From Escherichia phage vB-EcoP-XT18, in sequence record OR757434.1: DNA of 64,000 bases. The stretch is one strand, 5' to 3'. The notes beneath the pieces are model-generated. The model made no database searches and had not been told where the DNA came from. It saw only the letters and a program-made list of their open reading frames with translations. Position numbers and translations under genes: made by a program. Within the stretch, counting starts at the first letter, position 1. The number at the start of each line of letters is the position of its first letter. Below are positions 43,460-53,708 of this stretch, piece by piece.

Positions 43460-43665
43460 TCACTAACATTTCAGAATTTAAGAAAGCACCTTCCCGCTTG
43501 TTAGGCCGTCGTGTAGTATATCTTTATAGCAACAAAGGTAAATGTACAACCGGAAGAATTACAACGGTGAGTAGTGCCAATAAGAAACTACTAAAATTAT
43601 GTGTAGCTATGGATGACGGTACAATCCTGCTACGCAGTTGGAAGTCATTTAGTTTACTCGATTAA
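43456..43665 (+). CDS. hypothetical small protein
   Basis: Overlapping start/stop ATGA. Confidence 0.3.
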   Translation: MITNISEFKKAPSRLLGRRVVYLYSNKGKCTTGRITTVSSANKKLLKLCVAMDDGTILLRSWKSFSLLD

Positions 43666-43734
43666 GTTATTTGTTCAAGCCTATCGACTTGATGGGCTTG
43701 CCCGATATAACTTATCACTGAAAGGAATAAGATT

Positions 43735-44178
43735 GTGGCTAAATCTAAAATCAGCATGAAGGGCGGGCGTTGTTTTTCTATCTCTGAACTGGAGAAAGAG
43801 AAGCCGAAGGCAACCAATCACGTCAGTAAGCGCAGTTTAAAACGTCGTGCTGCAAAGGCTGAAGCTGAATCTCATATCCCTTCTAGTGTGGCAAAACGTG
43901 TAGGCCATCGCGTCCATCGTGCTGATGCGTTATTGTTAGCCGATCACAAACGTTCTTTATTACAGAGCGGGGGAGCTAAAACAGAAGAGGAGAAGAAGTT
44001 AGAAATCTTCTGTAATGGTCGCACCCGTGGTAAACAGAAATTTAAAGGTAGCACGAAAGACCCGCAGGCTTTTCCTAAGACAAGTCAGTGTGCACCTGAT
44101 GTATTCTACGCAGATAGCAAACACAAATGGGGAGTTGAAAAATACATTGACCCCATCAAAGAGGCAAGGGTTAAGTAG
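43735..44178 (+). CDS. hypothetical basic protein
   Basis: Lys/Arg-rich 147 aa. Confidence 0.3.
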   Translation: MAKSKISMKGGRCFSISELEKEKPKATNHVSKRSLKRRAAKAEAESHIPSSVAKRVGHRVHRADALLLADHKRSLLQSGGAKTEEEKKLEIFCNGRTRGKQKFKGSTKDPQAFPKTSQCAPDVFYADSKHKWGVEKYIDPIKEARVK

Positions 44179-44343
44179 TAGGAATATAGTCCCCTCTTTT
44201 AGTACTATGACGCTCTTTCTATCGCGTCGTGCCTTCTCCCCATTTGAAGCTTCCGCATAGCCGCCTTTGAGCGGCTTTTGTCGTTGCCGTAAGCGCATTT
44301 ACGAGTGTTTTTACTGCAATAGTCATGTATTGCTTTCAGGTTT

Positions 44344-44369
44344 GCCCCGGCTACGGCTGGGGCTTTTTT
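44344..44369 (+). terminator. rho-independent terminator
   Basis: gccccggc-tacg-gctggggc then TTTTTT. Confidence 0.6.
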
Positions 44370-44418
44370 ATGCCCGTAAAACAGGAGGTAGCAAGTTCTG
44401 ATAACAACGGCCCAGCTA

Positions 44419-44808
44419 ATGTTGACATTGACTATTTATTATGAGGCAGGGGACCAGCCAACCGCATGTAAAGCTATGGTTGCGGATACCGTGATAAATA
44501 GAATGGCTCAACGAAAACTGACCGCTGAACAGGTGATAAGACAAAAGAACCAGTTTGAGTGGATTCCGGTACTATTAAAACAGGAGAAACCTTATAAACG
44601 TTATGTAAAGCTGGTTCGTGATAAAAATCCGATGACTAGGCAAACCATTGGAGAAAGCGAGCGACTTGCTAAACGTGCCCTTAAGAAGAATTATGTTCCT
44701 CTGTATAGTGGGACTTACTTTCAGAGTAAGAGCGAAGGGGTGCCAAAATGGTATGCCAATCCTATGTATTGTGGTGATTTAGTGTTCGATAATAGCTCTA
44801 GGGAATAA
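44419..44808 (+). CDS. SleB/CwlJ-like cell-wall hydrolase domain protein
   Basis: IYYEAGDQPTACKAMVADTVINR ... QKNQFEWIP ... GTYFQSK ... PKWYAN parallels the SleB-family motif pattern. Confidence 0.5.
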   Translation: MLTLTIYYEAGDQPTACKAMVADTVINRMAQRKLTAEQVIRQKNQFEWIPVLLKQEKPYKRYVKLVRDKNPMTRQTIGESERLAKRALKKNYVPLYSGTYFQSKSEGVPKWYANPMYCGDLVFDNSSRE

Positions 44809-45007
44809 TCACTAGTGCCAGATTTGACAAACTAAATTCCTTTATAAACCAACCACTTAGTAAATTTATTGAAAAAGATGGTAGTATTCTGGGACTATGG
44901 GTAATGCTCTGTATATAGACCCTTTGAAAATTTCTTAGAAAATAAGTTTACTAAATATAACTTACTTAAATAATATTACTTTTAATCTCTGATAAAGGGT
45001 AAATAAT

Positions 45008-45304
45008 ATGACTTTAGAAGTATATAAATTCCTTTTTGTAAGCTGTTTAACTATCAGCGTTATAGGATTTATTGTTCTCAGAAACAAAGCAGCAAGCTGG
45101 GAGAGAATGTATAGATCTCTAGTCCGAGTGGATGAGATGTATAATGAGAAAGTTAAAGCAACGCTTAATGATCTTATTATGCAAGTAGAGGACAGAAACA
45201 AGCGTCTTCAGAATCTCAACCATGAAGTATTGCGCCTTGCTCGTGCTAATGAAGACTTGCGAGTAGCTATTGCTAAACAGCAGGAGATTAACAGTGAAAG
45301 TTAA
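45008..45304 (+). CDS. membrane-anchored coiled-coil protein
   Basis: N-terminal TM (FLFVSCLTISVIGFIVL) then helical region. Confidence 0.35.
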   Translation: MTLEVYKFLFVSCLTISVIGFIVLRNKAASWERMYRSLVRVDEMYNEKVKATLNDLIMQVEDRNKRLQNLNHEVLRLARANEDLRVAIAKQQEINSES

Positions 45305-45527
45305 TATTAAGCCTGATCATACTACACTTCGTTTAAATAACATGAGGCCGGGTGCTCTGTTTCATTTTAAAGGTTCTCTCTATATCAGAACCGGATTAAC
45401 AACTGACTATCACGTCAATTGTGTTAACGTGGTTTCTGGAGAGCTTATTGTTATCAGCAAAAACGAAGTCTGCCAAGTGCGCAATGATCTCCACATAACT
45501 AACATCGAGGCTAAAGATGAAGATTGA
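45270..45527 (+). CDS. small protein, GDVF-motif paralogue family
   Basis: LRLNNMRPGALFHFKG motif. Confidence 0.35.
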   Translation: MLNSRRLTVKVNIKPDHTTLRLNNMRPGALFHFKGSLYIRTGLTTDYHVNCVNVVSGELIVISKNEVCQVRNDLHITNIEAKDED

Positions 45528-45774
45528 TCTTGAATTAAAAGACCCAGACCTTACAGTGGGTGATTTAAAGCTTGGAGATGTGTTCCAAGTTAAAGCTACA
45601 CGCGTCGATCATTATTTGGTTGTTAGTTTATTCACTCCACACGTAACCGAGTCGAACAGGAAAGATTCTGGAACAGTTGTGCTTGGTTTAAGAACTAATC
45701 AGGTTATGAAGCTCAATTCAAAACTTCCTGTAATCCTTATCCCAGATGCAGTAATTACTAATAAAGGTAAGTGA
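45517..45774 (+). CDS. small protein, GDVF-motif paralogue family
   Basis: DLKLGDVFQVK motif. Confidence 0.4.
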   Translation: MKIDLELKDPDLTVGDLKLGDVFQVKATRVDHYLVVSLFTPHVTESNRKDSGTVVLGLRTNQVMKLNSKLPVILIPDAVITNKGK

Positions 45775-45993
45775 ATGGAAATTAAAGTGGTTGATTATCC
45801 TAAATATGCAAATGCAGAAGACGTTAAGGGTGGTGATGTTTTCTCTTACGATAAACGTTTCTGGCTGATGCTAGAAGATAAAACCCTTGATGGTTTGTGT
45901 AAGGCTGCTAACTTGAGCAGTGGTTATGTTGAAGTCTTCGGTCTATCAACCACTATTATGCCACGTCCTGATCTGTGTTTATCCCAAAAGTAA
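45775..45993 (+). CDS. small protein, GDVF-motif paralogue family
   Basis: VKGGDVFSYDKRFWLMLEDK; close to 48786..49007. Confidence 0.4.
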   Translation: MEIKVVDYPKYANAEDVKGGDVFSYDKRFWLMLEDKTLDGLCKAANLSSGYVEVFGLSTTIMPRPDLCLSQK

Positions 45994-46351
45994 CACCGAC
46001 TTATAGCCCTTGTGTTTACCAGAGGGCTATGTGAGGGTGTTCCTCATTAACTTATTAATTCAGGCATATGCCACACCGCTAGGGAGAGCTTGCTCAAACA
46101 TCCGGTGCTAGACTAAAACCTGTTAATTTTCGAAAGACTTTCCGGTATGTAGGGGTACGTATTGGTTTGGGATTCAGGAGACTTCCTAGGGGTAGGGAGT
46201 CTTCACCAGTTGGAATAAGAGATAGCTCTAGAACCTGAACTCTTAGGCAGAGAAGGTCGGCAATGAGTACGCGGTCAGGATTAGTCTACTGACTAGGGCT
46301 ATCCCTTATATCAACTGGCAATAATGCCTCCACTAACAAAGAGAGATAGGT

Positions 46352-46492
46352 ATGAAAGTATCAACCAAACGTATGAACCGCCCTGAGCGTATGGATGCAG
46401 TAGCTAACGGTGCTCTGAAACTGGAAGGCTTCTGGGTTCATGCAATGTCGGCTATTCGTAACAAGCAAGGTAATTGGACATATAACAGTTAA
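46352..46492 (+). CDS. small basic protein (46 aa)
   Basis: ATG with GAGAGATAGG RBS after long intergenic region; followed by terminator. Confidence 0.3.
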   Translation: MKVSTKRMNRPERMDAVANGALKLEGFWVHAMSAIRNKQGNWTYNS

Positions 46493-46500
46493 TAAATAAA

Positions 46501-46530
46501 AGGCTGCCTTCGGGCGGCCTTTGTTGTTTT
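46501..46530 (+). terminator. rho-independent terminator
   Basis: aggctgcc-ttcg-ggcggcct then TTGTTGTTTT. Confidence 0.65.
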
Positions 46531-46574
46531 AATTAAGGGACAACTCTTACTTAAACTAACAAGAGGAAGCTCAA

Positions 46575-46751
46575 ATGTCTAAGCAAACAATCAAGAATAC
46601 ACAAGCTGGTTACTCTTATGTTAACTCTCCTTGCTGTGGTGCTCGTGTTAATCTGGTTAAGGAAGAGGTTCGTATCGTTCAGCGTGGCGCTACTGTTGTT
46701 CGTTCATGCTGTGTCTGTGGTAATGATATTTTTATCAAAGGTAAAGTATGA
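46575..46751 (+). CDS. small zinc-ribbon-like protein (CC ... CC)
   Basis: SPCCGARV ... SCCVCGND motif; AAGAGGAAG RBS. Confidence 0.35.
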   Translation: MSKQTIKNTQAGYSYVNSPCCGARVNLVKEEVRIVQRGATVVRSCCVCGNDIFIKGKV

Positions 46752-46972
46752 TTATCGTCCACTCTGAACCTAAAGATAATACTTTTGGTAGTCTACGTAA
46801 TGGTGATGTATTCTCTCTAGAAATAGACGGGGATACAAAACCTCCTTTATACATGAAGGTTATGCACAGACATGCTATCTGTATAAAGAATCCTGAAACA
46901 AGATTCACCTTTGATAGAACTTGCCCTGTCAAATACTATCAAGCTACCCTAAATGTTAGGAGAGTAGGATGA
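46748..46972 (+). CDS. small protein, GDVF-motif paralogue family
   Basis: LRNGDVFSLEIDG. Confidence 0.4.
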   Translation: MIIVHSEPKDNTFGSLRNGDVFSLEIDGDTKPPLYMKVMHRHAICIKNPETRFTFDRTCPVKYYQATLNVRRVG

Positions 46973-47220
46973 AAAACTTCCAAGCTGCACCAATAACTAA
47001 AGCGATCGCAGTTAGTGATGTGATGATGACTGTTCCTCTGAACACTCGTTACATTGCAATTGACAAGATGGGTTATGTATGGGCTTGGAAGATTAAGCCT
47101 AGCTATAACGCATTGTTTGACGAGTTTGTTTGTACTGGTACTTACAGTCCTACATTCTTGGGTTTATTTGGAGAGTTTGAAGGTCAGTATAAAATCATTA
47201 CTCTCCCTGCTTGTGTTTGA
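46969..47220 (+). CDS. small protein, paralogue of 47228..47461
   Basis: RYIAIDKMGYVWAWKIKP vs RYLATDSNGEVYGFTHKP. Confidence 0.35.
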   Translation: MKNFQAAPITKAIAVSDVMMTVPLNTRYIAIDKMGYVWAWKIKPSYNALFDEFVCTGTYSPTFLGLFGEFEGQYKIITLPACV

Positions 47221-47227
47221 GGTTCTG

Positions 47228-47461
47228 GTGAAGACTAAAGAGGTTAAATATTTTGGTGAAGTTATTAAAATAGGTAACTCTATAAGATATTTAGCAACTG
47301 ATAGCAACGGCGAAGTGTATGGGTTTACTCATAAGCCAGAAATTCGTGGGTATGCTTGGGCACTCCCTTATGGAACTCCATTCGAGACTGGAGGGGCTGT
47401 TTATCTTAATGATAATGGACCTCTGTTTGGGTGGAAAACATCTCTCGTTGAGGTGGTATAA
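47228..47461 (+). CDS. small protein, paralogue of 46969..47220
   Basis: GTG start with GAGG RBS; in frame of track ORF 47054..47461. Confidence 0.3.
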   Translation: MKTKEVKYFGEVIKIGNSIRYLATDSNGEVYGFTHKPEIRGYAWALPYGTPFETGGAVYLNDNGPLFGWKTSLVEVV

Positions 47462-47636
47462 TTATGTTCAAGTGGTTTAAATATCTCTTCCATCTCCATG
47501 AGTGGGAGACAATCAAAGCGGTTAGTTTAAATACATACAATGAGTTTGGTAAACTGGAAAGTACCGGAACTCGTTACATACTTCGATGTAAAACATGTGG
47601 TCATATCACTAAGCGGGATATGATCTAAGAGGTGTT

Positions 47637-47846
47637 ATGTTCTTTCGTAAGAAAAAGCCCGAAGATTCTGGATGTAAACATGAGTGGGTGATCACTGAAA
47701 ACTTACATATCACTCACGCTAAAGACACTCCAGTTGAAGCGAAAGAGTCTCGTGTATCTCGTGTCTGTAAACGCTGTTTGAAAATAGAACAGCATAAAGT
47801 CCCCGGTCATATAGGTCATGATGTGGCCTTGCGTATCTTCAGTTAA
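47637..47846 (+). CDS. hypothetical small protein
   Basis: ORF with Cys pairs (CKHEW ... CKRC). Confidence 0.3.
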   Translation: MFFRKKKPEDSGCKHEWVITENLHITHAKDTPVEAKESRVSRVCKRCLKIEQHKVPGHIGHDVALRIFS

Positions 47847-47864
47847 ACAAATTCAGAGGTTAAT

Positions 47865-48173
47865 GTGAAACAAAAGCATTTTATCATCTCAACCTTACTA
47901 CTAATGACAACCATTGGTATCATCTCTGTTAATAGTGCAGAGATTGGGGTTAAGTATCAGAGTGTTCAGCAATGCACTCTTAAAGAGCATAGCTTAACTG
48001 GTATCAAAGAATCTCATGGTATGGTAAGAGATGGGCTTCTGTTTGTAGAAACAACTTCTGGTAATCGTGTCATGGCTACTGATGGCAAAGAAACAAAGTA
48101 TGCCTACTTCCCTGATACAACAGGCTACTACACTTTTGAAGAGAAGGATTGTAAGAAGTCTTTCTCTTTATAA
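47865..48173 (+). CDS. secreted small protein
   Basis: N-terminal signal-like FIISTLLLMTTIGIISVNSA. Confidence 0.35.
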   Translation: MKQKHFIISTLLLMTTIGIISVNSAEIGVKYQSVQQCTLKEHSLTGIKESHGMVRDGLLFVETTSGNRVMATDGKETKYAYFPDTTGYYTFEEKDCKKSFSL

Positions 48174-48182
48174 ATAAATCAA

Positions 48183-48257
48183 GTCCCTATAGTTAAAAGG
48201 ATATAACAGATTTCTTCTAAAAATCCATTCTAGGTTCGAGTCCTAGTGGGGACGCCA
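48183..48257 (+). tRNA. tRNA-Arg (anticodon UCU), CCA encoded
   Basis: Hand-folded cloverleaf: acceptor GTCCCTA/TGGGGAC (one G-U), U8, D-stem GTTA/TAAC, anticodon stem GATTT/AAATC with loop CTTCTAA (U33, TCT), T-arm CTAGG-TTCGAGT-CCTAG, discriminator G, CCA. Confidence 0.75.
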
Positions 48258-48277
48258 AATCAAATAGGAGGTGTGTT

Positions 48278-48577
48278 ATGAGTTGGGGTGGTGTAATATC
48301 CTTAATCTGTATCTTCCTTGTCTGTGTGGCCCTTACAGGCTGCGTACAGAGCCGTCCTGATAGATGGTGTGCAGTAGCAGTGGATGGTATTTGTGTATCT
48401 CGCTGGCATAAAGGTGAGAAGGTTCCTTCTGGTGAAATTGATATGCGCTGGAACGGAGCAACCTGCTCTAATGCTAACCCTTCTATCAACGAAGAGAAGT
48501 CTACGCCAGACAATGTTGTGATTGATACAGCGTTGTGGTGTGGTGGCTCTACGACTACAACCGGTAAGGAGTGGTGA
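48278..48577 (+). CDS. lipoprotein
   Basis: Signal with lipobox LTGC (ICIFLVCVALTGC); AGGAGG RBS. Confidence 0.45.
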   Translation: MSWGGVISLICIFLVCVALTGCVQSRPDRWCAVAVDGICVSRWHKGEKVPSGEIDMRWNGATCSNANPSINEEKSTPDNVVIDTALWCGGSTTTTGKEW

Positions 48578-48578
48578 T

Positions 48579-48776
48579 ATGAATTACACGTCTACAAAGG
48601 TGTTAATTGATTCGATTAATAACACCTCAGAAGCTGTACAGGAGCGTTTAATACAAGATGTAAGCAATGATATTAAGTTCTTTGTTAAACGCCGCCTGTT
48701 AGGTTCTAAGGCTTATTACAGAGCTAAAGCTGAGTTAACTAAGAGAGTGTTTCTCTTACACGGCTTGGTGTATTAA
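48579..48776 (+). CDS. hypothetical small protein
   Basis: ATG with AAGGAG RBS in frame of track ORF 48522..48776. Confidence 0.3.
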   Translation: MNYTSTKVLIDSINNTSEAVQERLIQDVSNDIKFFVKRRLLGSKAYYRAKAELTKRVFLLHGLVY

Positions 48777-48785
48777 GGAACTCGT

Positions 48786-49007
48786 ATGAAATTAGATTCT
48801 AAACAATCCCTTAAAACTGTTGAACTGTCCACACTGCCAAACGGAAGTATTTTTGGTCATGATAAACACTTCTGGATTAAAACAGACTACTTGAACGATG
48901 GGTATATTACCTGCGTCAACCTTTGGAATGGTTCAGTGGATGGCTATCGCCCTAGTGCAAAAGTAGTCCCTCAGCCTGATGCAAAGGCTATAGGTTTAGT
49001 TTATTAA
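48786..49007 (+). CDS. small protein, GDVF-motif paralogue family
   Basis: LPNGSIFGHDKHFWIKTDY. Confidence 0.4.
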   Translation: MKLDSKQSLKTVELSTLPNGSIFGHDKHFWIKTDYLNDGYITCVNLWNGSVDGYRPSAKVVPQPDAKAIGLVY

Positions 49008-49016
49008 GGAGTTTAT

Positions 49017-49190
49017 ATGAGCTGTTTTGGTGGTGGTGAAATAGATGACGATTATGACATGGAATCCAACGGTACATGTCCTGATTGTGGGTGTGAAACA
49101 TTTGATGGAGTGTCAGTATATCCTGCCTGTAGTTATTCACCAGTAGTTTGTAAAACATGTGGAGATCAACCTTGTGATCAGTCCTGTTAA
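49017..49190 (+). CDS. small Cys-rich protein (57 aa)
   Basis: CPDCGCE ... PACS ... CKTCGD ... CDQSC; AAGGAG RBS. Confidence 0.3.
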   Translation: MSCFGGGEIDDDYDMESNGTCPDCGCETFDGVSVYPACSYSPVVCKTCGDQPCDQSC

Positions 49191-49979
49191 GAGGTTTTAT
49201 GACTGAAGAATTTTTAAAGTGGTTTGGAAATACCTTCAAAGAATATCTATTCTCTCCAGAAGACTTTGAAGAGCTGAAAACCTACACTTGGTTGGCTTGG
49301 AGAGATAGCCGACGAGAGATGAATAAGTAATATCGTGAAGGATTCTTACGAGAGTCCTTTGAGATAGGACTTCAGATCTCCTATCAAACTAACATTCACG
49401 TAACTAGCCCATAAGGGCGTTACCCTTTAATAACCCAGCCCACTAAGGGGGCGGGAGTTTAGTGCTGGATTTAGCATAACGCTTATTCCTACAAAGGCAT
49501 CCGATTGTTAGATCTTACATGCAATATTAATTAATAGGATAAGGGAGGATTCGTCCCCTCCCCCTATTTATAAATTATCAGGAGGGTGCATTAGCTGATT
49601 AGCTGTAGAAGGGAGGCTGATATCTACAGCGTGGCCCAGAGTTAGTGTACTCTCCTGATGAGTAGATACCTCATCACGGTAAGCTGTGGAATAATCTTTA
49701 CAGAAGTTACTTAAAGTAGCCTGTACGGCCCTCAGCAAAGAGTCCGGACGATATCTGAGTGACTTTAAAAACAGATGGAGCCAGGTGGAATCCCTGGCAA
49801 TCAATTACAGGTATAGCTTATGAGGCTAATTAATGCAGAGCCTATGGTAAAGCAGTCGCCCGTGGTCAAATGACCGTATGCCCATTGGGTGCATCCCTTT
49901 GGTGATGGCTAGGGAGTCCGAGCGTAGGTCCGAACCCTACACCTGTAACCAAATCAAACAATATCTAATTGGAGGATGT

Positions 49980-50291
49980 ATGAAAGCTCGAAGAACTATA
50001 TGGACTCCGATGCAGATTGAAAATCTTCGGAGACTAATCAAAGAGTACTCTGTTCAAGAGGTTGCTCAGATTATGAATGTAACGGAGAATGCAGTTAATA
50101 CAGCTTGCACTAAGTTTGGTATATCAAGAGCTGCAATCCGAGTCAAGTGGTCTAAAGAAGAAGACCAGTTCCTTATCCGTAATGCTGGGTTCATGTCTAT
50201 TCAGAGAATGGCTGACATGCTCGGTAGAAGCTATGCTGCTGTACAGAACAGGGCATGTATGCACCTTAACATTAGCCTTAAACTTAAATAG
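49980..50291 (+). CDS. small HTH DNA-binding protein (putative transcription regulator)
   Basis: Internal ATG with GGAGG RBS in track ORF 49878..50291; HTH-like VQEVAQIMNVTENAVNTACTKFGIS. Confidence 0.4.
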   Translation: MKARRTIWTPMQIENLRRLIKEYSVQEVAQIMNVTENAVNTACTKFGISRAAIRVKWSKEEDQFLIRNAGFMSIQRMADMLGRSYAAVQNRACMHLNISLKLK

Positions 50292-50299
50292 GAATCAAT

Positions 50300-50485
50300 A
50301 TGAAAGTTAACGAGTTAAATAGAACTACCAAGACTGTGAAACTCCATACTCTGAAGAAGGGTGATACATTCCGTTTAGAGGAGAATGGACCAATCCACAT
50401 GGTCTGCACTGCGGCATCTACTAATTGGGTGGAAGTTGCACGAGATCGAGTAGTGTGTGTGTCAGGCTGGAAGATGGTAATCTGA
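50300..50485 (+). CDS. small protein, GDVF-motif paralogue family
   Basis: LKKGDTFRLEENG. Confidence 0.35.
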   Translation: MKVNELNRTTKTVKLHTLKKGDTFRLEENGPIHMVCTAASTNWVEVARDRVVCVSGWKMVI

Positions 50486-50552
50486 GTGGTCCGGTCGAGG
50501 GGATTCCTGTTATCCCTGTTAAAGTTGAAGCTAACGTTATTAAGGGTTCTAA

Positions 50553-50798
50553 ATGAAGATCATCCCAAAGATTAAAGATAACACTGTTTCATTGGCTACA
50601 ATTATTCCCGGAAACCCTTTCGTAGTTCAAAGAGGAACAGCATCCCCTCAGTATTACATCCGTGTCAATAATGTGTCCAACAAAATCTCTGTCGAAGAAG
50701 GTTGGATTACTATAGTCAATCTTCTTACTGGTGTATTAGGTGTTATGAAAAGTGATGCCCCAGTTGAAGTGATTCGTATGTCAGTGGTTCAGGAGTAG
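50553..50798 (+). CDS. small protein, GDVF-motif paralogue family
   Basis: IIPGNPFVVQRG. Confidence 0.35.
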   Translation: MKIIPKIKDNTVSLATIIPGNPFVVQRGTASPQYYIRVNNVSNKISVEEGWITIVNLLTGVLGVMKSDAPVEVIRMSVVQE

Positions 50799-50803
50799 TG
50801 TAG

Positions 50804-51046
50804 ATGAGCACAATACATATCAAGGTCCATCACAAAGAAGAAAAGAAACTCTTTGTTAAAGATCTATCAATCGCTGATATCTTTACTTTAAAAGAAGATG
50901 ATAATCAGGTCATCTATTTGATGATGCCTGTGACTGAAGGGTATCGAAGGGCTGTTTGTTTGGGTACAGGTGTACCTCGTCCTGTTGCTGATACCCTTGA
51001 AGTTGGTGAGAAGTTTAGTAAGGCTGAAATTATCTTAACTTCGTAG
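50804..51046 (+). CDS. small protein, GDVF-motif paralogue family
   Basis: LSIADIFTLKEDD. Confidence 0.35.
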   Translation: MSTIHIKVHHKEEKKLFVKDLSIADIFTLKEDDNQVIYLMMPVTEGYRRAVCLGTGVPRPVADTLEVGEKFSKAEIILTS

Positions 51047-51276
51047 GAAAACAAATGAGACGTAAAGCATATTCTTATGACGATATGATTAACCAGAAAG
51101 GCTTCGGTCAACGACAGCCTGACGGTTCAATTATCTGGTTCGTAAACGGGCAGAAAAAGGTAGCTAAATAAGCCTTCTTCTCTCCTCCTTTTAGTACTAT
51201 GACGCCTCTCTGTGGGCGGACCAATTTGCGTAGGGAATTCCCTCTACGCAGCCATAATTTTTAAGGAATTTCCCCT

Positions 51277-51510
51277 ATGTCTAAAGTAAGCGCAATTGAT
51301 GCAATCCGTCAACCGTTCCAGTTCCAATCCAAATCAACCCAAACCTTCAGCGAACCTAAGCAAATTCGCTTGGGTGGCACAGAGAAGACTGTGTTCGATC
51401 TGGCTAAAAATAAAAGTGTTACCGTAGTTGATGGTGGCACTCTGGTTAACGTTTCCCATCGTATCCGCACTGGCAAAACTGCCAAAGATCGTGCTAAGAA
51501 AGGTGAGTAA
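51277..51510 (+). CDS. hypothetical small basic protein
   Basis: ORF with RBS. Confidence 0.3.
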   Translation: MSKVSAIDAIRQPFQFQSKSTQTFSEPKQIRLGGTEKTVFDLAKNKSVTVVDGGTLVNVSHRIRTGKTAKDRAKKGE

Positions 51511-51752
51511 TGAAAATAGGGAAACCAGCTAAGGATGCTCTATCGAAGATTAGTGATGTCTCTATTGGGGAAGTTTTCTCAGCAGAGCACTTTTCAAGTT
51601 ACTACATGAAAATCCCTGACACTAAAGTAGAGGGTTACATCATTCCTGCCAACGCAGTTAACCTGAACACAGGCCATCTGTCTGCATTCAAACCTGATTC
51701 ACAGGTTACTGAGATCAAGGATGCCTATCTCGCCTTTGGTGGGGATAAGTAG
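51510..51752 (+). CDS. small protein, GDVF-motif paralogue family
   Basis: VSIGEVFSAEHF. Confidence 0.35.
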   Translation: MKIGKPAKDALSKISDVSIGEVFSAEHFSSYYMKIPDTKVEGYIIPANAVNLNTGHLSAFKPDSQVTEIKDAYLAFGGDK

Positions 51753-52140
51753 AGTGACATTTATAGCCTTCCCTCCGGAGGGCTATGTGAGTCATTCTGA
51801 CTCAACTAACCTAATCTTAATATATTTCCCGTATGGGGCCGATGCTAGGGCGAGGAATATTCCTCAAACATCCGTCGGATAGATATTTTAAGAGCAGGTT
51901 ATCCACAGATATTGGGTAATATCTTTTTGGATTTAAAGCTTGGCTCTTTTCGGAGAGTCCTTTTTTAAATTCAACGAGAGGAAATATGTCTAAATTAGAT
52001 TTAAAACTGCTAGCAGCAGCGGTAGTGATTTGTGCACTAGCACTGGTAACGCAGAGAACATCTGGATTTATTCAGTGTTTCTTTTCTGGGCAATCCACTT
52101 ATCAGTGGGTTATTGACGAGTGTAAACAACAGGAGTAAGT

Positions 52141-52503
52141 ATGAATACACGTCCCATTAAGGGCAACGTTAATATTGAAACTCTGAACAAGGTTGCATCA
52201 AATCTCGGTGGAATGTCCAACGAGGATCTTGAGCAAGAACTTGCTTGGATTGCAAATGGTATCAAAGTTGCTAAAGGTAAGATTGCTCGTGAGCAAAGCA
52301 ACATGAAAGCTCACAAGTATATCATCCGTCGTGCAAATACGTTACCAGAGCGGGTTGTACATCTTGCCCGTAAAAACTACGAAGATGCAAAGAAAGCTAT
52401 GGAAGAAGCTACTTTCCAGAAGCACCAATTTATGAACAACTACAGAAACTTCCGAGATATTCTTTATATCCGTAAGTCAATTGAGTTGATTAAAAACCAA
52501 TAG
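52141..52503 (+). CDS. hypothetical protein
   Basis: First sizeable gene after intergenic element; helical, basic. Confidence 0.3.
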   Translation: MNTRPIKGNVNIETLNKVASNLGGMSNEDLEQELAWIANGIKVAKGKIAREQSNMKAHKYIIRRANTLPERVVHLARKNYEDAKKAMEEATFQKHQFMNNYRNFRDILYIRKSIELIKNQ

Positions 52504-52514
52504 AGGTTGGTATA

Positions 52515-53708
52515 ATGTTTCCAGTAACATTAGAAGATACTGAAGGTAATGTTTTAACGGTCCACCCTCCTTGTTATGGGTTCCTTCAGCTTCGCAACTA
52601 TAATGGTGGCGTTGATGAAGATGATTACGAAGATGAATACTTCGACCCTAACATGTATGAGGCAACTCATGGGTGGAATATGCACGTTCGAGTGTGGCAT
52701 GAAGAGGCTAACGTTCGTAGTGCTGATGGGGAAGAGTTCCTGCTAAGCCGAGAGATGGATATGTGTAAAATCAAGCATATCTGGAACTCCGGAACTCACA
52801 TGAAGATGTTAGGTTTTAGACGATGGCGTGATGAAAAACCTGTATCCGCAGATTTAGGTTGGGGTGCAATTGATCACGAAGGCGAGCTTAAAAATAACAT
52901 TGAGCACTGGAATGATAAAAACCCTGAGTATCAAACCTCACCTCGTGCTGTACTGGAAGCTATGGAAGCATTTGTGGACAAAGATCGTCCCTCCTGTTTA
53001 CGCTGGCACGAAAAAGGTTTTATGGGTGTAGCAACTGAGAATGTTCCTGCTGATCGTTGTCTGTTCTATTTAATGTTAGATCGAACCTTCTATTGTGATG
53101 ATGAAGAGAGTCAAGTTGAAACCTTCCTTCATAAATGGTTGGTTGAAGGATGGACAATTCTTCAGGCTTACGTTTACTCACGAATGGTTAGCACTTACAC
53201 TAACCTCTTGGGTGAAACGAAAGCTACTCTGGTTGGTAATGATTGGGATGCTTGTATCTTCCCAGCGTCGTTGTTTACGGTTGGTATGGCTGATAAATAT
53301 GCTGAAGCATTTCAAGTGCCTTGGCGTCAACAGTCGTATAGGGATGGGTGTGGTCACTTCCGTGATGAAGATTTTAAGTGGATTCGTTATGAGAATGATG
53401 AAACAGCAGAATTACGAGTTAATAATTCGATGTTCTTGCCGGTGATGCACCCTGATTTAGTAGAGAGCGAATCAGAAATCCTGAAATGTGACAACCTTCT
53501 GATCAACTTTACTCGTCGCGTGTCTAAAAATGAGAGAACATCTAACAGGTTAATCTACGGCATTCGTGCTGAGGCTAAAGATCTGTTCAACATCTACAAC
53601 ATTGTTCAGCGATTTAGTAGTGGGATTCTGGACCAAAGTTCGGAGTATTCAGTGATTCCATCCTCTGAGTGGGATGGTGTTATGAGCGGATTATTTTTAG
53701 GAAAATAA
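52515..53708 (+). CDS. hypothetical protein, component of amidoligase cluster
   Basis: 397 aa, translationally coupled to cluster; no motif recognised. Confidence 0.35.
   Translation: MFPVTLEDTEGNVLTVHPPCYGFLQLRNYNGGVDEDDYEDEYFDPNMYEATHGWNMHVRVWHEEANVRSADGEEFLLSREMDMCKIKHIWNSGTHMKMLGFRRWRDEKPVSADLGWGAIDHEGELKNNIEHWNDKNPEYQTSPRAVLEAMEAFVDKDRPSCLRWHEKGFMGVATENVPADRCLFYLMLDRTFYCDDEESQVETFLHKWLVEGWTILQAYVYSRMVSTYTNLLGETKATLVGNDWDACIFPASLFTVGMADKYAEAFQVPWRQQSYRDGCGHFRDEDFKWIRYENDETAELRVNNSMFLPVMHPDLVESESEILKCDNLLINFTRRVSKNERTSNRLIYGIRAEAKDLFNIYNIVQRFSSGILDQSSEYSVIPSSEWDGVMSGLFLGK

Follow-up and report, generated by a model that had tools for sequence, protein, structure and literature searches.

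Nine small genes in the early block

The window analyzed here is a stretch of 64,000 nucleotides from Escherichia phage vB-EcoP-XT18 (OR757434.1), a phiEco32-like Kuravirus with E. coli as its host. Between positions 45,294 and 51,752 it contains nine members of one family of small proteins, a short repeat that disrupts one of them, and two genes of a second family. The features are listed below with coordinates, strand, protein length, and PHROG matches, and for the main family also with the phiEco32 ortholog, the motif, the hhalign probability against the remaining members, and dN/dS.

45294..45527, + strand: member 1, 77 aa; phrog_16423; ortholog phi32_115; motif MRPGALF; hhalign 98.6%; dN/dS 0.17
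45517..45774, + strand: member 2, 85 aa; phrog_9955; ortholog phi32_114; motif LKLGDVF; hhalign 98.7%; dN/dS 0.15-0.18
45775..45993, + strand: member 3, 72 aa; phrog_6570; ortholog phi32_113; motif VKGGDVF; hhalign 98.9%; dN/dS 0.12-0.17
46748..46972, + strand: member 4, 74 aa; phrog_10911; ortholog phi32_109; motif LRNGDVF; hhalign 97.0%, E 9e-11; dN/dS 0.07-0.08
46969..47220, + strand: second family, copy A, 83 aa; phrog_1972, 13913, 19703
47228..47461, + strand: second family, copy B, 77 aa; phrog_23941, 1972, 11307, 19703
48786..49007, + strand: member 5, 73 aa; phrog_6570; ortholog phi32_104; motif LPNGSIF; hhalign 98.8%; dN/dS 0.04-0.09
50300..50556, + strand: member 6, disrupted; phrog_7832; motif LKKGDTF; hhalign 97.2%
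50453..50462, + strand: (GT)5 tract with the +2-bp insertion that frameshifts member 6
50553..50798, + strand: member 7, 81 aa; phrog_7431; ortholog phi32_96; motif IIPGNPF; hhalign 98.2%; dN/dS 0.07-0.25
50804..51046, + strand: member 8, 80 aa; phrog_12612; ortholog phi32_95; motif LSIADIF; hhalign 97.2%; dN/dS 0.10-0.18
51510..51752, + strand: member 9, 80 aa; phrog_12612; motif VSIGEVF; hhalign 99.1%; dN/dS 0.10-0.15

Within the Kuravirus early block the nine genes lie at four syntenic positions, where they are closely packed or overlapping, and each is preceded by a ribosome-binding site. Members 1 and 2 overlap by 11 nt, and the start of member 7 overlaps the stop of member 6 (ATGA). The start at 45270 that an earlier note on this DNA assigned to member 1 is probably 24 nt too far upstream. 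Member 6, as it stands in this sequence, is split between ORF 50300..50485 (61 aa) and an out-of-frame tail in ORF 50425..50556. The tract responsible is (GT)4 in XT73, XT32, and 12 other records, and the insertion is private to this genome; with the 2 bp taken out, member 6 is an 84-aa protein.

Orthologs of the family in phiEco32 are phi32_95-98, 104, 109, and 113-115. The early block of that phage is transcribed by the host sigma-70 RNA polymerase (PMC12276001, PMC8948821, PMC9965538, PMC4281155), and the orthologs of the nine genes fall inside it. Orthology to phi32_95-115 and the published temporal classes (PMC12276001, PMC8948821, PMC4281155) suggest that the nine genes belong to the early class, in agreement with their previous description as small early proteins. 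A local scan of the block found 18 consensus sigma-70 promoter sites where 21.8 were expected, which is no enrichment, and early expression of the block therefore rests on the literature. An Rfam scan gave a tRNA as its sole match. Family members are absent from the protein list of the SU10 proteomics study, and the paralogous family is unmentioned in the accessible Kuravirus papers.

An old and diverged paralogous family

All nine genes encode versions of one single-domain protein (72-85 residues) and are old paralogs that have diverged from one another; the expanded paralogous family proposed in the earlier note is upheld by profile tests. In leave-one-group-out comparisons, in which the ortholog group of each ORF was removed, all nine matched the rest of the family with hhalign probabilities of 97.0-99.1% (E 9e-11 to 8e-19), while ten neighboring small-ORF groups used as controls reached 0.1-9.8%. 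Distant relatives bridge all of the PHROGs involved. Member 3 matches member 5 with an E-value of 8e-9. Member 4 is the most divergent copy (E 3.7e-4) and is linked to the family through distant relatives. Member 9 is the most central sequence, with cross-hits to PHROGs 6570, 7431, 16423, and 34455, and its allele type is found in only 17 phage records. The paralogs are 15-31% identical to the reference copy, and no DNA-level repeats were found between them, so that recent duplications are absent.

A chance or compositional likeness among unrelated short ORFs would be in keeping with the many weak pairwise BLAST E-values (0.01 to 1) and with the motif as first written, LxxG[DSNE][VIT]F, which fits only four of the nine ORFs. 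A relaxed form of the motif, [LVIM]xx[GA]xxF, is nevertheless carried by all nine at residues 16-21, within a single domain that begins at residue 1. Profile similarity is significant for every one of the nine ORFs, a shuffle test gave p=1e-11, and the bridging sequences and the convergence of independent structure models point the same way. Together these tests refute a chance resemblance, which can for practical purposes be dismissed.

The family fold is predicted to be a five-stranded SH3-like small beta-barrel, on the basis of AF2 models of two of the nine members. The model of member 9 (51510) has five strands with a pLDDT of 79.6 and a pTM of 0.68, and that of member 2 (45517), made with only its own orthologs as the alignment, also has five strands (pLDDT 78.5). 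Built from independent alignments, the two models have the same viral structural neighbors (BFVD), and the beta-like patterns described in the earlier note are borne out by the beta-rich prediction. Homology of the nine proteins and a common fold are together considered highly probable. Only M1, Phe23 (strand 2), an aromatic residue of strand 3, and two turns, one of Gly-Asp and one with Gly that follows strand 4, are conserved across the family. The alignment columns M1, G20, and F23 are invariant and G55 is near-invariant, with the exception of member 8, which has Ala where Gly20 is usual. These shared residues appear to be structural. The loops that join strand 2 to strand 3 and strand 3 to strand 4 differ in both length and sequence, and member 2 has a long variable loop from strand 3 to strand 4.

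The second pair of paralogs, at 46969 and 47228, is also real. It is a separate family (phrog_1972) that is unrelated to the main one; hhalign gave 0.5% for copy A against the main family.

Purifying selection keeps each intact copy of the main family. The dN/dS of each intact copy against its orthologs lies between 0.04 and 0.25, at dS values up to about 1-2. Copy number (5-9) and alleles differ between related Kuraviruses, and XT73 and 4E8 are without member 3.

Possible functions

As the conserved positions seem to serve structure and the loops are variable, the proteins most likely share one scaffold and serve as binding modules without enzymatic activity. They would be synthesized from host sigma-70 early transcripts just after genome entry, and with diversified loops on the shared barrel the individual paralogs would differ in the host (or phage) macromolecule that they bind. 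Their role would most likely be conditional: the proteins would fine-tune expression or neutralize host factors that are not essential, for example defence or nucleoid proteins, rather than kill the host. The targeting of host factors or defence systems that was suggested earlier is thus plausible. LUZ24 gp7 is the only family member with assay results, and it inhibited neither growth nor biofilm formation of the host. This speaks against host shut-off as a general role and is compatible with counter-defence. The phage group, Gordonclarkvirinae, has broad and unexplained resistance to RM and other defence systems. Taken as a whole, from homology to function, this explanation falls slightly short of being probable, and its binding-module and conditional host-modulation part is put forward as a tentative proposal.

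Other roles can be envisaged for proteins with this predicted fold. They may be nucleic-acid binders of the LSm, KOW, Tudor, or HspQ type that modulate phage or host mRNA stability, translation, or transcription, with paralogs recognizing different sequences or structures. This is possible but rather unlikely, as the nine proteins have a net charge close to neutral (-2 to +4, pI 4.9-9.5) and the paralogs share no conserved surface patch of basic or aromatic residues, the invariant residues being Gly, Phe, and Met only. In addition, wild-type T4 GoF and MotB.1 were without effect in an RNA reporter assay (PMC12152347), and homology to the T4 family was not detected. It is very unlikely that the family consists of host shut-off factors that each block an essential machine such as RNA polymerase, the replisome, or the division apparatus. 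LUZ24 gp7 did not impair growth, in contrast to four unrelated early proteins of LUZ24. The phiEco32 protein gp79, an RNA polymerase-binding inhibitor of sigma-70 that also acts as a co-activator for gp36, resembles the family in that it is small (82 aa), comes from the same phage group, and reprograms the host. It can be ruled out as a member, however, because it is helical (PMC12276001) while the family models are all-beta, its gene phi32_79 is elsewhere in the genome, and it scores -1.2 bits against the family profile. Copies have also been gained, lost, and swapped among close relatives, and one is frameshifted here, a pattern typical of accessory rather than essential functions.

The same variability in copy number, the lack of any known function, and the inactivation of member 6 with no sign of compensation would suit copies that are redundant or nearly neutral, left over from old duplications and without distinct targets, such as dosage copies of one function. 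This reading is highly doubtful. The low dN/dS in every intact copy shows that each is individually maintained, and the identity to the reference copy of just 15-31% is a poor fit to dosage redundancy. If the proteins are instead binding modules, they might belong to a pan-phage evolvable binder scaffold that has been expanded lineage by lineage, with each paralog neutralizing a different host defence or nucleoid protein and the nine-copy set contributing to the defence resistance of Gordonclarkvirinae. In this extended form the proposal is speculative and unlikely.

The wider superfamily and known systems

The nine genes belong to a widespread phage superfamily that is not a Kuravirus-specific invention and is broader than the earlier note supposed. 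A profile search reached up to 2,623 clusters (50% identity), including N4 gp21, LUZ24 gp7, and four genes of Salmonella phage 7-11. The superfamily occurs in a large number of phages, most of which are virulent and infect Gram-negative bacteria. The search also reached a SprT-like protein of bacterial origin in which there are five copies in tandem; a word-index search by way of this Tenacibaculum SprT repeat found no domain fusions. Giant matches of 1-3 kaa (NHL-repeat, cadherin-like, and others) were judged to be spurious, with scores summed over beta-strand repeats. Two of them gave Pfam matches, to NHL-repeat and cadherin, and the rest of the group was judged alike, so that the 2,623 clusters are an upper bound.

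Searches of Pfam, NCBIfam, PADLOC, and PDB sequences with the family gave nothing significant, and the superfamily has no Pfam or NCBIfam model and is uncatalogued as one family. Each of the nine ORFs matches a PHROG at E 1e-13 to 1e-41. The existing entries for these proteins (PHROGs 6570, 7832, 7431, 8365, 16423, 9955, 12612, 34455, and 10911) are all of "unknown function", and PHROGs splits the superfamily into at least nine families, which are united here by cross-hits, bridging sequences, and profile-profile tests. Kuraviruses are frequent therapeutic-phage candidates, and their early genes are almost all "hypothetical". A single superfamily with a predicted fold, in which nine early genes and at least nine PHROG families come together, replaces many orphans with one testable object, and a partner or phenotype of one member would bear on hundreds to thousands of phage proteins. 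Should the members be target-specific inhibitors, they could help to explain the defence resistance of the group and supply new small protein inhibitors. Otherwise, a block of ORFans is still removed from the unknowns, and a seed alignment for a Pfam-type family is gained.

Several known domains resemble the family at the level of fold only, namely FeoA, the C-terminal SH3-like domains of DtxR and IdeR, KOW, and Tudor. The nine ORFs have no match at E<=1 to FeoA (PF04023), KOW (PF00467), LSM (PF01423), Tudor, or other Pfam models, and 119 distant relatives have none to the same models at E<=0.01. The family lacks the metal-binding histidines and the glycine motif of KOW. [quoted passage not shown] 2025, PMC12152347). 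The family described here is predicted to share with the N-terminal domain of the T4 proteins a five-stranded antiparallel barrel whose nearest PDB neighbors are FeoA and IdeR-type SH3 domains. With a barrel, a linker, and a C-terminal domain, the T4 proteins are two-domain proteins of 119-141 aa, whereas here the barrel makes up nearly the whole chain of 72-85 aa. T4 has three copies to the nine found here, and its proteins do not have the GDxF signature. Homology was detected neither with the HMM (scores of about 0 bits) nor with a GoF profile, which gave hhalign values of 0.1-0.6% against 86-95% for positive controls in a test of low power that gives only 0.3% for MotB.1/Frd.2 with GoF. The T4 proteins are therefore kept as a fold-level analogue.

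True homologs are found in N4 (gp21), LUZ24 (gp7), and 7-11 (gp110, gp112, gp131, and gp133). They have the same MK[IV]...GxxF...Y.K...N.V.L.TG signature and match the family with hhalign probabilities of 92-95%. HMM E-values are 1e-15 to 1e-9 for N4 gp21, LUZ24 gp7, and 7-11 gp112 and gp131, and weaker for 7-11 gp133 (8e-7) and gp110 (8e-4). These homologs are uncharacterized early or middle proteins, and a literature search on N4 gp21 found nothing relevant. There is one copy in N4 (30 kb scanned), one in LUZ24 (14 kb scanned), four in 7-11, and nine in the phage described here.

The paralogous family and its genes

The nine small early-block ORFs (named by their starts 45270, 45517, 45775, 46748, 48786, 50300, 50553, 50804 and 51510, and numbered here as members 1 to 9) are all found in the window and form a real paralogous family, as the earlier note proposed. 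Leave-one-group-out profile tests, HMM recovery and the hhalign network all agree on this. The motif by which the family had been described, L-x-x-G-[DSNE]-[VIT]-F, is literally present in four members and absent from five, and none of the 450 other window ORFs of at least 35 aa has it. A relaxed form, [LVIM]xx[GA][DSNEA]xF, is found in all nine at residues 16-21, and at arbitrary positions in 14 of the 450 other ORFs.

Profile comparisons delimit the family. An HMM seeded with the seven members cross-linked by PHROGs was searched against the 459 window ORFs, and the left-out ORFs 45517 (E 3.9e-5) and 46748 (3.7e-4) were the top non-seed matches, the third-ranked being already at E 0.28. An iterated search of the window and seven related loci converges in the window on exactly the nine members and the displaced tail of member 6. 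Profiles made only from each member's own orthologs join the paralogs into a single connected network in hhalign (links of 55-97%), and score 2% or less against ten control groups from neighbouring small ORFs. The cleanest test used hhalign to set each ortholog-group profile against a family profile lacking that entire group. Every one of the nine groups matched, at 97.0-99.1% (E 9e-11 to 8e-19) and along almost the whole length, with controls at 0.1-9.8%, showing that the shared motif has statistical support. A shared SH3-like small beta-barrel is predicted for the proteins, in keeping with the beta-like patterns noted earlier.

The genes are preceded in every case by a Shine-Dalgarno-like sequence, and neighbouring genes abut or overlap (gaps of -11, -11, 0, -4, -4 and -1 nt). 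The true start of ORF 45270 is most likely GTG 45294 (77 aa), since this is where both the PHROG profile and the XT73 annotation begin, with a GGAG ahead of it. With KBNP1711, phiEco32 and XT73 orthologs as reference, dN/dS of the eight intact paralogs is 0.04-0.25 (pooled 0.16; dS 0.16-1.95), showing that each intact copy is under purifying selection. No DNA-level repeats were found between paralogs, so the duplications are old. Member 6 (ORF 50300) has (GT)5 at 50453-50462, within 50300..50556, where XT73 and XT32 have (GT)4. The two extra bases shorten the protein from 84 to 61 aa, and its displaced remainder is readable in ORF 50425..50556. The insertion is absent from all 14 other deposited phage records carrying the gene, so it is either a sequencing or assembly error or a private (slippage) mutation.

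The early block and its variation

The window is from a Kuravirus (Gordonclarkvirinae), a phiEco32-like podophage. Matches to region 45000-52000 come from 172 phage records, the best being Escherichia phage vB-EcoP-XT73 (96.9% identity, 94% of query); the vB-EcoP-XT32 ortholog of member 9 is 100% identical. Every related record annotates the family genes as "hypothetical protein". The block that holds them consists of dozens of short, tightly packed ORFs on the + strand and includes:

48183-48257, tRNA-Arg(TCT), in the middle of the early block
~49980-50291, D5-like transcriptional regulator, within the early block

From the place of their orthologs in a block assigned by the literature, the family genes are probably of the early class, which the host sigma-70 holoenzyme transcribes before the gp79/gp36 transcription switch (PMC12276001; see also PMC9965538 and PMC4281155 on the early class of this phage group). 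Consensus sigma-70 promoter matches are not enriched in 43500-53000. Terminator-like hairpins are enriched there (13 versus 6.2 +/- 2.0 expected), with strong ones on the + strand at 44344-44363 and 46499-46522. ORF-free gaps occur at 45994-46351 and 49331-49979.

Several other features of the block were observed. An exact 18-nt repeat, CTTTTAGTACTATGACGC, occurs on the + strand at 44196-44213 and 51188-51205 (0.05 copies expected by chance). Each copy is intergenic, lies just past a stop codon and precedes terminator-like hairpins by 20-45 nt. The repeat is conserved at equivalent positions in XT73 (two copies), XT32 and phiEco32, and may serve in regulation or RNA processing. Directly after the tRNA, ORF 48278..48577 (99 aa) has a lipoprotein-type signal (…LTGC…), and its phiEco32 ortholog is annotated "putative phage lipoprotein"; it may have a superinfection-exclusion-type function. 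Directly upstream of the first paralog cluster, ORF 45008..45304 has relatives labelled "DNA helicase" (phrog_12154). At 98 aa it is far too small for a helicase, so the label looks like a propagated error; the protein appears to begin with a hydrophobic helix, after which comes a coiled-coil-like segment.

Copy number and alleles vary among related phages, with gain and loss of the accessory type. Nine copies are found in the window, phiEco32 (gp95-98, 104, 109, 113-115) and KBNP1711, eight in XT73, six each in 4E8 and ECBP2, and five in IME267; in the phages compared, the copies always lie in the same four slots. KBNP1711 has two adjacent member-5-type copies (L003 10383-10835), which share 56% and 99% identity with that of the window, and XT73 has a 69%-identical member-2 allele (L001 3518-3772) between neighbours that are 98-100% identical. 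These patterns suggest recombinational swapping of alleles. In the same slots, the variants of Suseptimaviruses reach only 25-40% identity. Only 17 records have the member-9 allele, and other genomes have a 33-37% identical variant at that position. Farther away, four copies are found in Salmonella phage 7-11 and one each in N4 (30 kb examined) and LUZ24 (14 kb examined).

Distribution of the superfamily

No Pfam or NCBIfam model exists for the large phage superfamily to which the family belongs, and PHROGs divides it into at least nine families. PADLOC likewise has no model of it. A word-indexed search of 5.8 billion proteins gave 107 clusters, many on ~77 kb contigs and all orthologs of seven of the nine paralogs. 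Scanned in full with HMMER, 1.84 billion cluster representatives gave 2,623 matches at E<=1e-3. This is an upper bound, since it apparently includes repeat-driven false positives: a few giant proteins, among them NHL-repeat and cadherin-like ones. Of the best 150, most are 67-106 aa long, stand alone and match from their first residue, and some matches are two-fold or three-fold tandem fusions. When member 9 is aligned with 118 distant stand-alone relatives, M1, G20 and F23 are invariant and G55 nearly so (consensus MKI...L..GDVF......YMK...N.V.L..G). None of these 119 sequences has a credible Pfam match. They match phrog_6570 (114), 7832 (91), 7431 (85), 8365 (75), 16423 (61), 9955 (35), 12612 (31), 34455 (14) and 10911 (9), thus bridging all PHROGs of the nine window proteins. 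Direct tests place N4 gp21 (hhalign 95%), 7-11 gp131 (94%) and LUZ24 gp7 (92%) in the superfamily, and 7-11 gp112, gp133 and gp110 were also confirmed. Its unification yields a defined, widely distributed experimental target.

Kuraviruses, 7-11 and LUZ24-like Pseudomonas phages also have in common a block of amidoligase, COOH.NH2-ligase, glutamine amidotransferase, ATP-grasp and gamma-glutamyl cyclotransferase genes. It lies downstream of the small early genes (52515 onward in the window, phi32_80-88, and L017 5443-13075 in LUZ24), and upstream of it in each phage group is a small-barrel family member.

The small barrel is also present in cellular proteins, as seen in MFV0249145.1, a chromosomal 478-aa protein of a Tenacibaculum sp. 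MAG (L010 3583-5019). Its N-terminal SprT-like metalloprotease domain precedes five tandem, very basic barrel copies (LPIGSVFEYKN…Y.C.KL…), each at ~1e-6 against the broad profile and one at hhalign 86%. This hints at nucleic-acid binding in the cellular setting.

Function and known systems

The earlier note proposed host factors or defence systems as targets, and the best-supported reading is that the proteins are a diversified set of binding modules, acting conditionally to modulate the host or counter its defences. No catalytic signature, and none of a known family, can be recognised in them. Across the superfamily, conservation falls on turn glycines and core hydrophobic or aromatic residues, and indels and most sequence variation fall in the loops between strands 2-3 and 3-4. 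This pattern points to non-enzymatic binders, each paralog with its own target, and fits a constant scaffold that would present variable binding surfaces. With a charge near neutral, the proteins resemble neither DNA mimics nor strongly basic DNA binders. A serious rival is that they bind nucleic acid, as suggested by KOW and LSm-type structural neighbours, the basic SprT-fused repeats and the T4 GoF precedent.

The only experimental datum found on a family member concerns LUZ24 gp7. Of 13 early ORFans, gp7 included, that were expressed from a single copy in P. aeruginosa, four inhibited growth; gp7 was not one of them, and it did not lower biofilm formation either (PMC4635203, main text and Table S2). 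This result, and the fact that copies are gained, lost and in one case frameshifted, favour a conditional role rather than the shut-off of essential host machinery. Such a role could be counter-defence, nucleoid-protein neutralisation or expression tuning; the broad defence resistance of the phage group is circumstantially compatible with the first.

The accessible Kuravirus literature (that is, other than the original phiEco32 papers) makes no mention of the paralogous early family. The family is unrelated to gp79, the small protein known to bind RNA polymerase in this phage group. The closest analogue is the T4 GoF/MotB.1/Frd.2 family, and membership in that family fails the tests run. [quoted passage not shown] The T4 proteins differ in having two domains. 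They resemble the main family in the kind of fold, FeoA and IdeR-type structural neighbours, early class, very divergent sequences and non-essentiality. The kind of protein is already known: multi-copy small beta-barrel early proteins of virulent phages.
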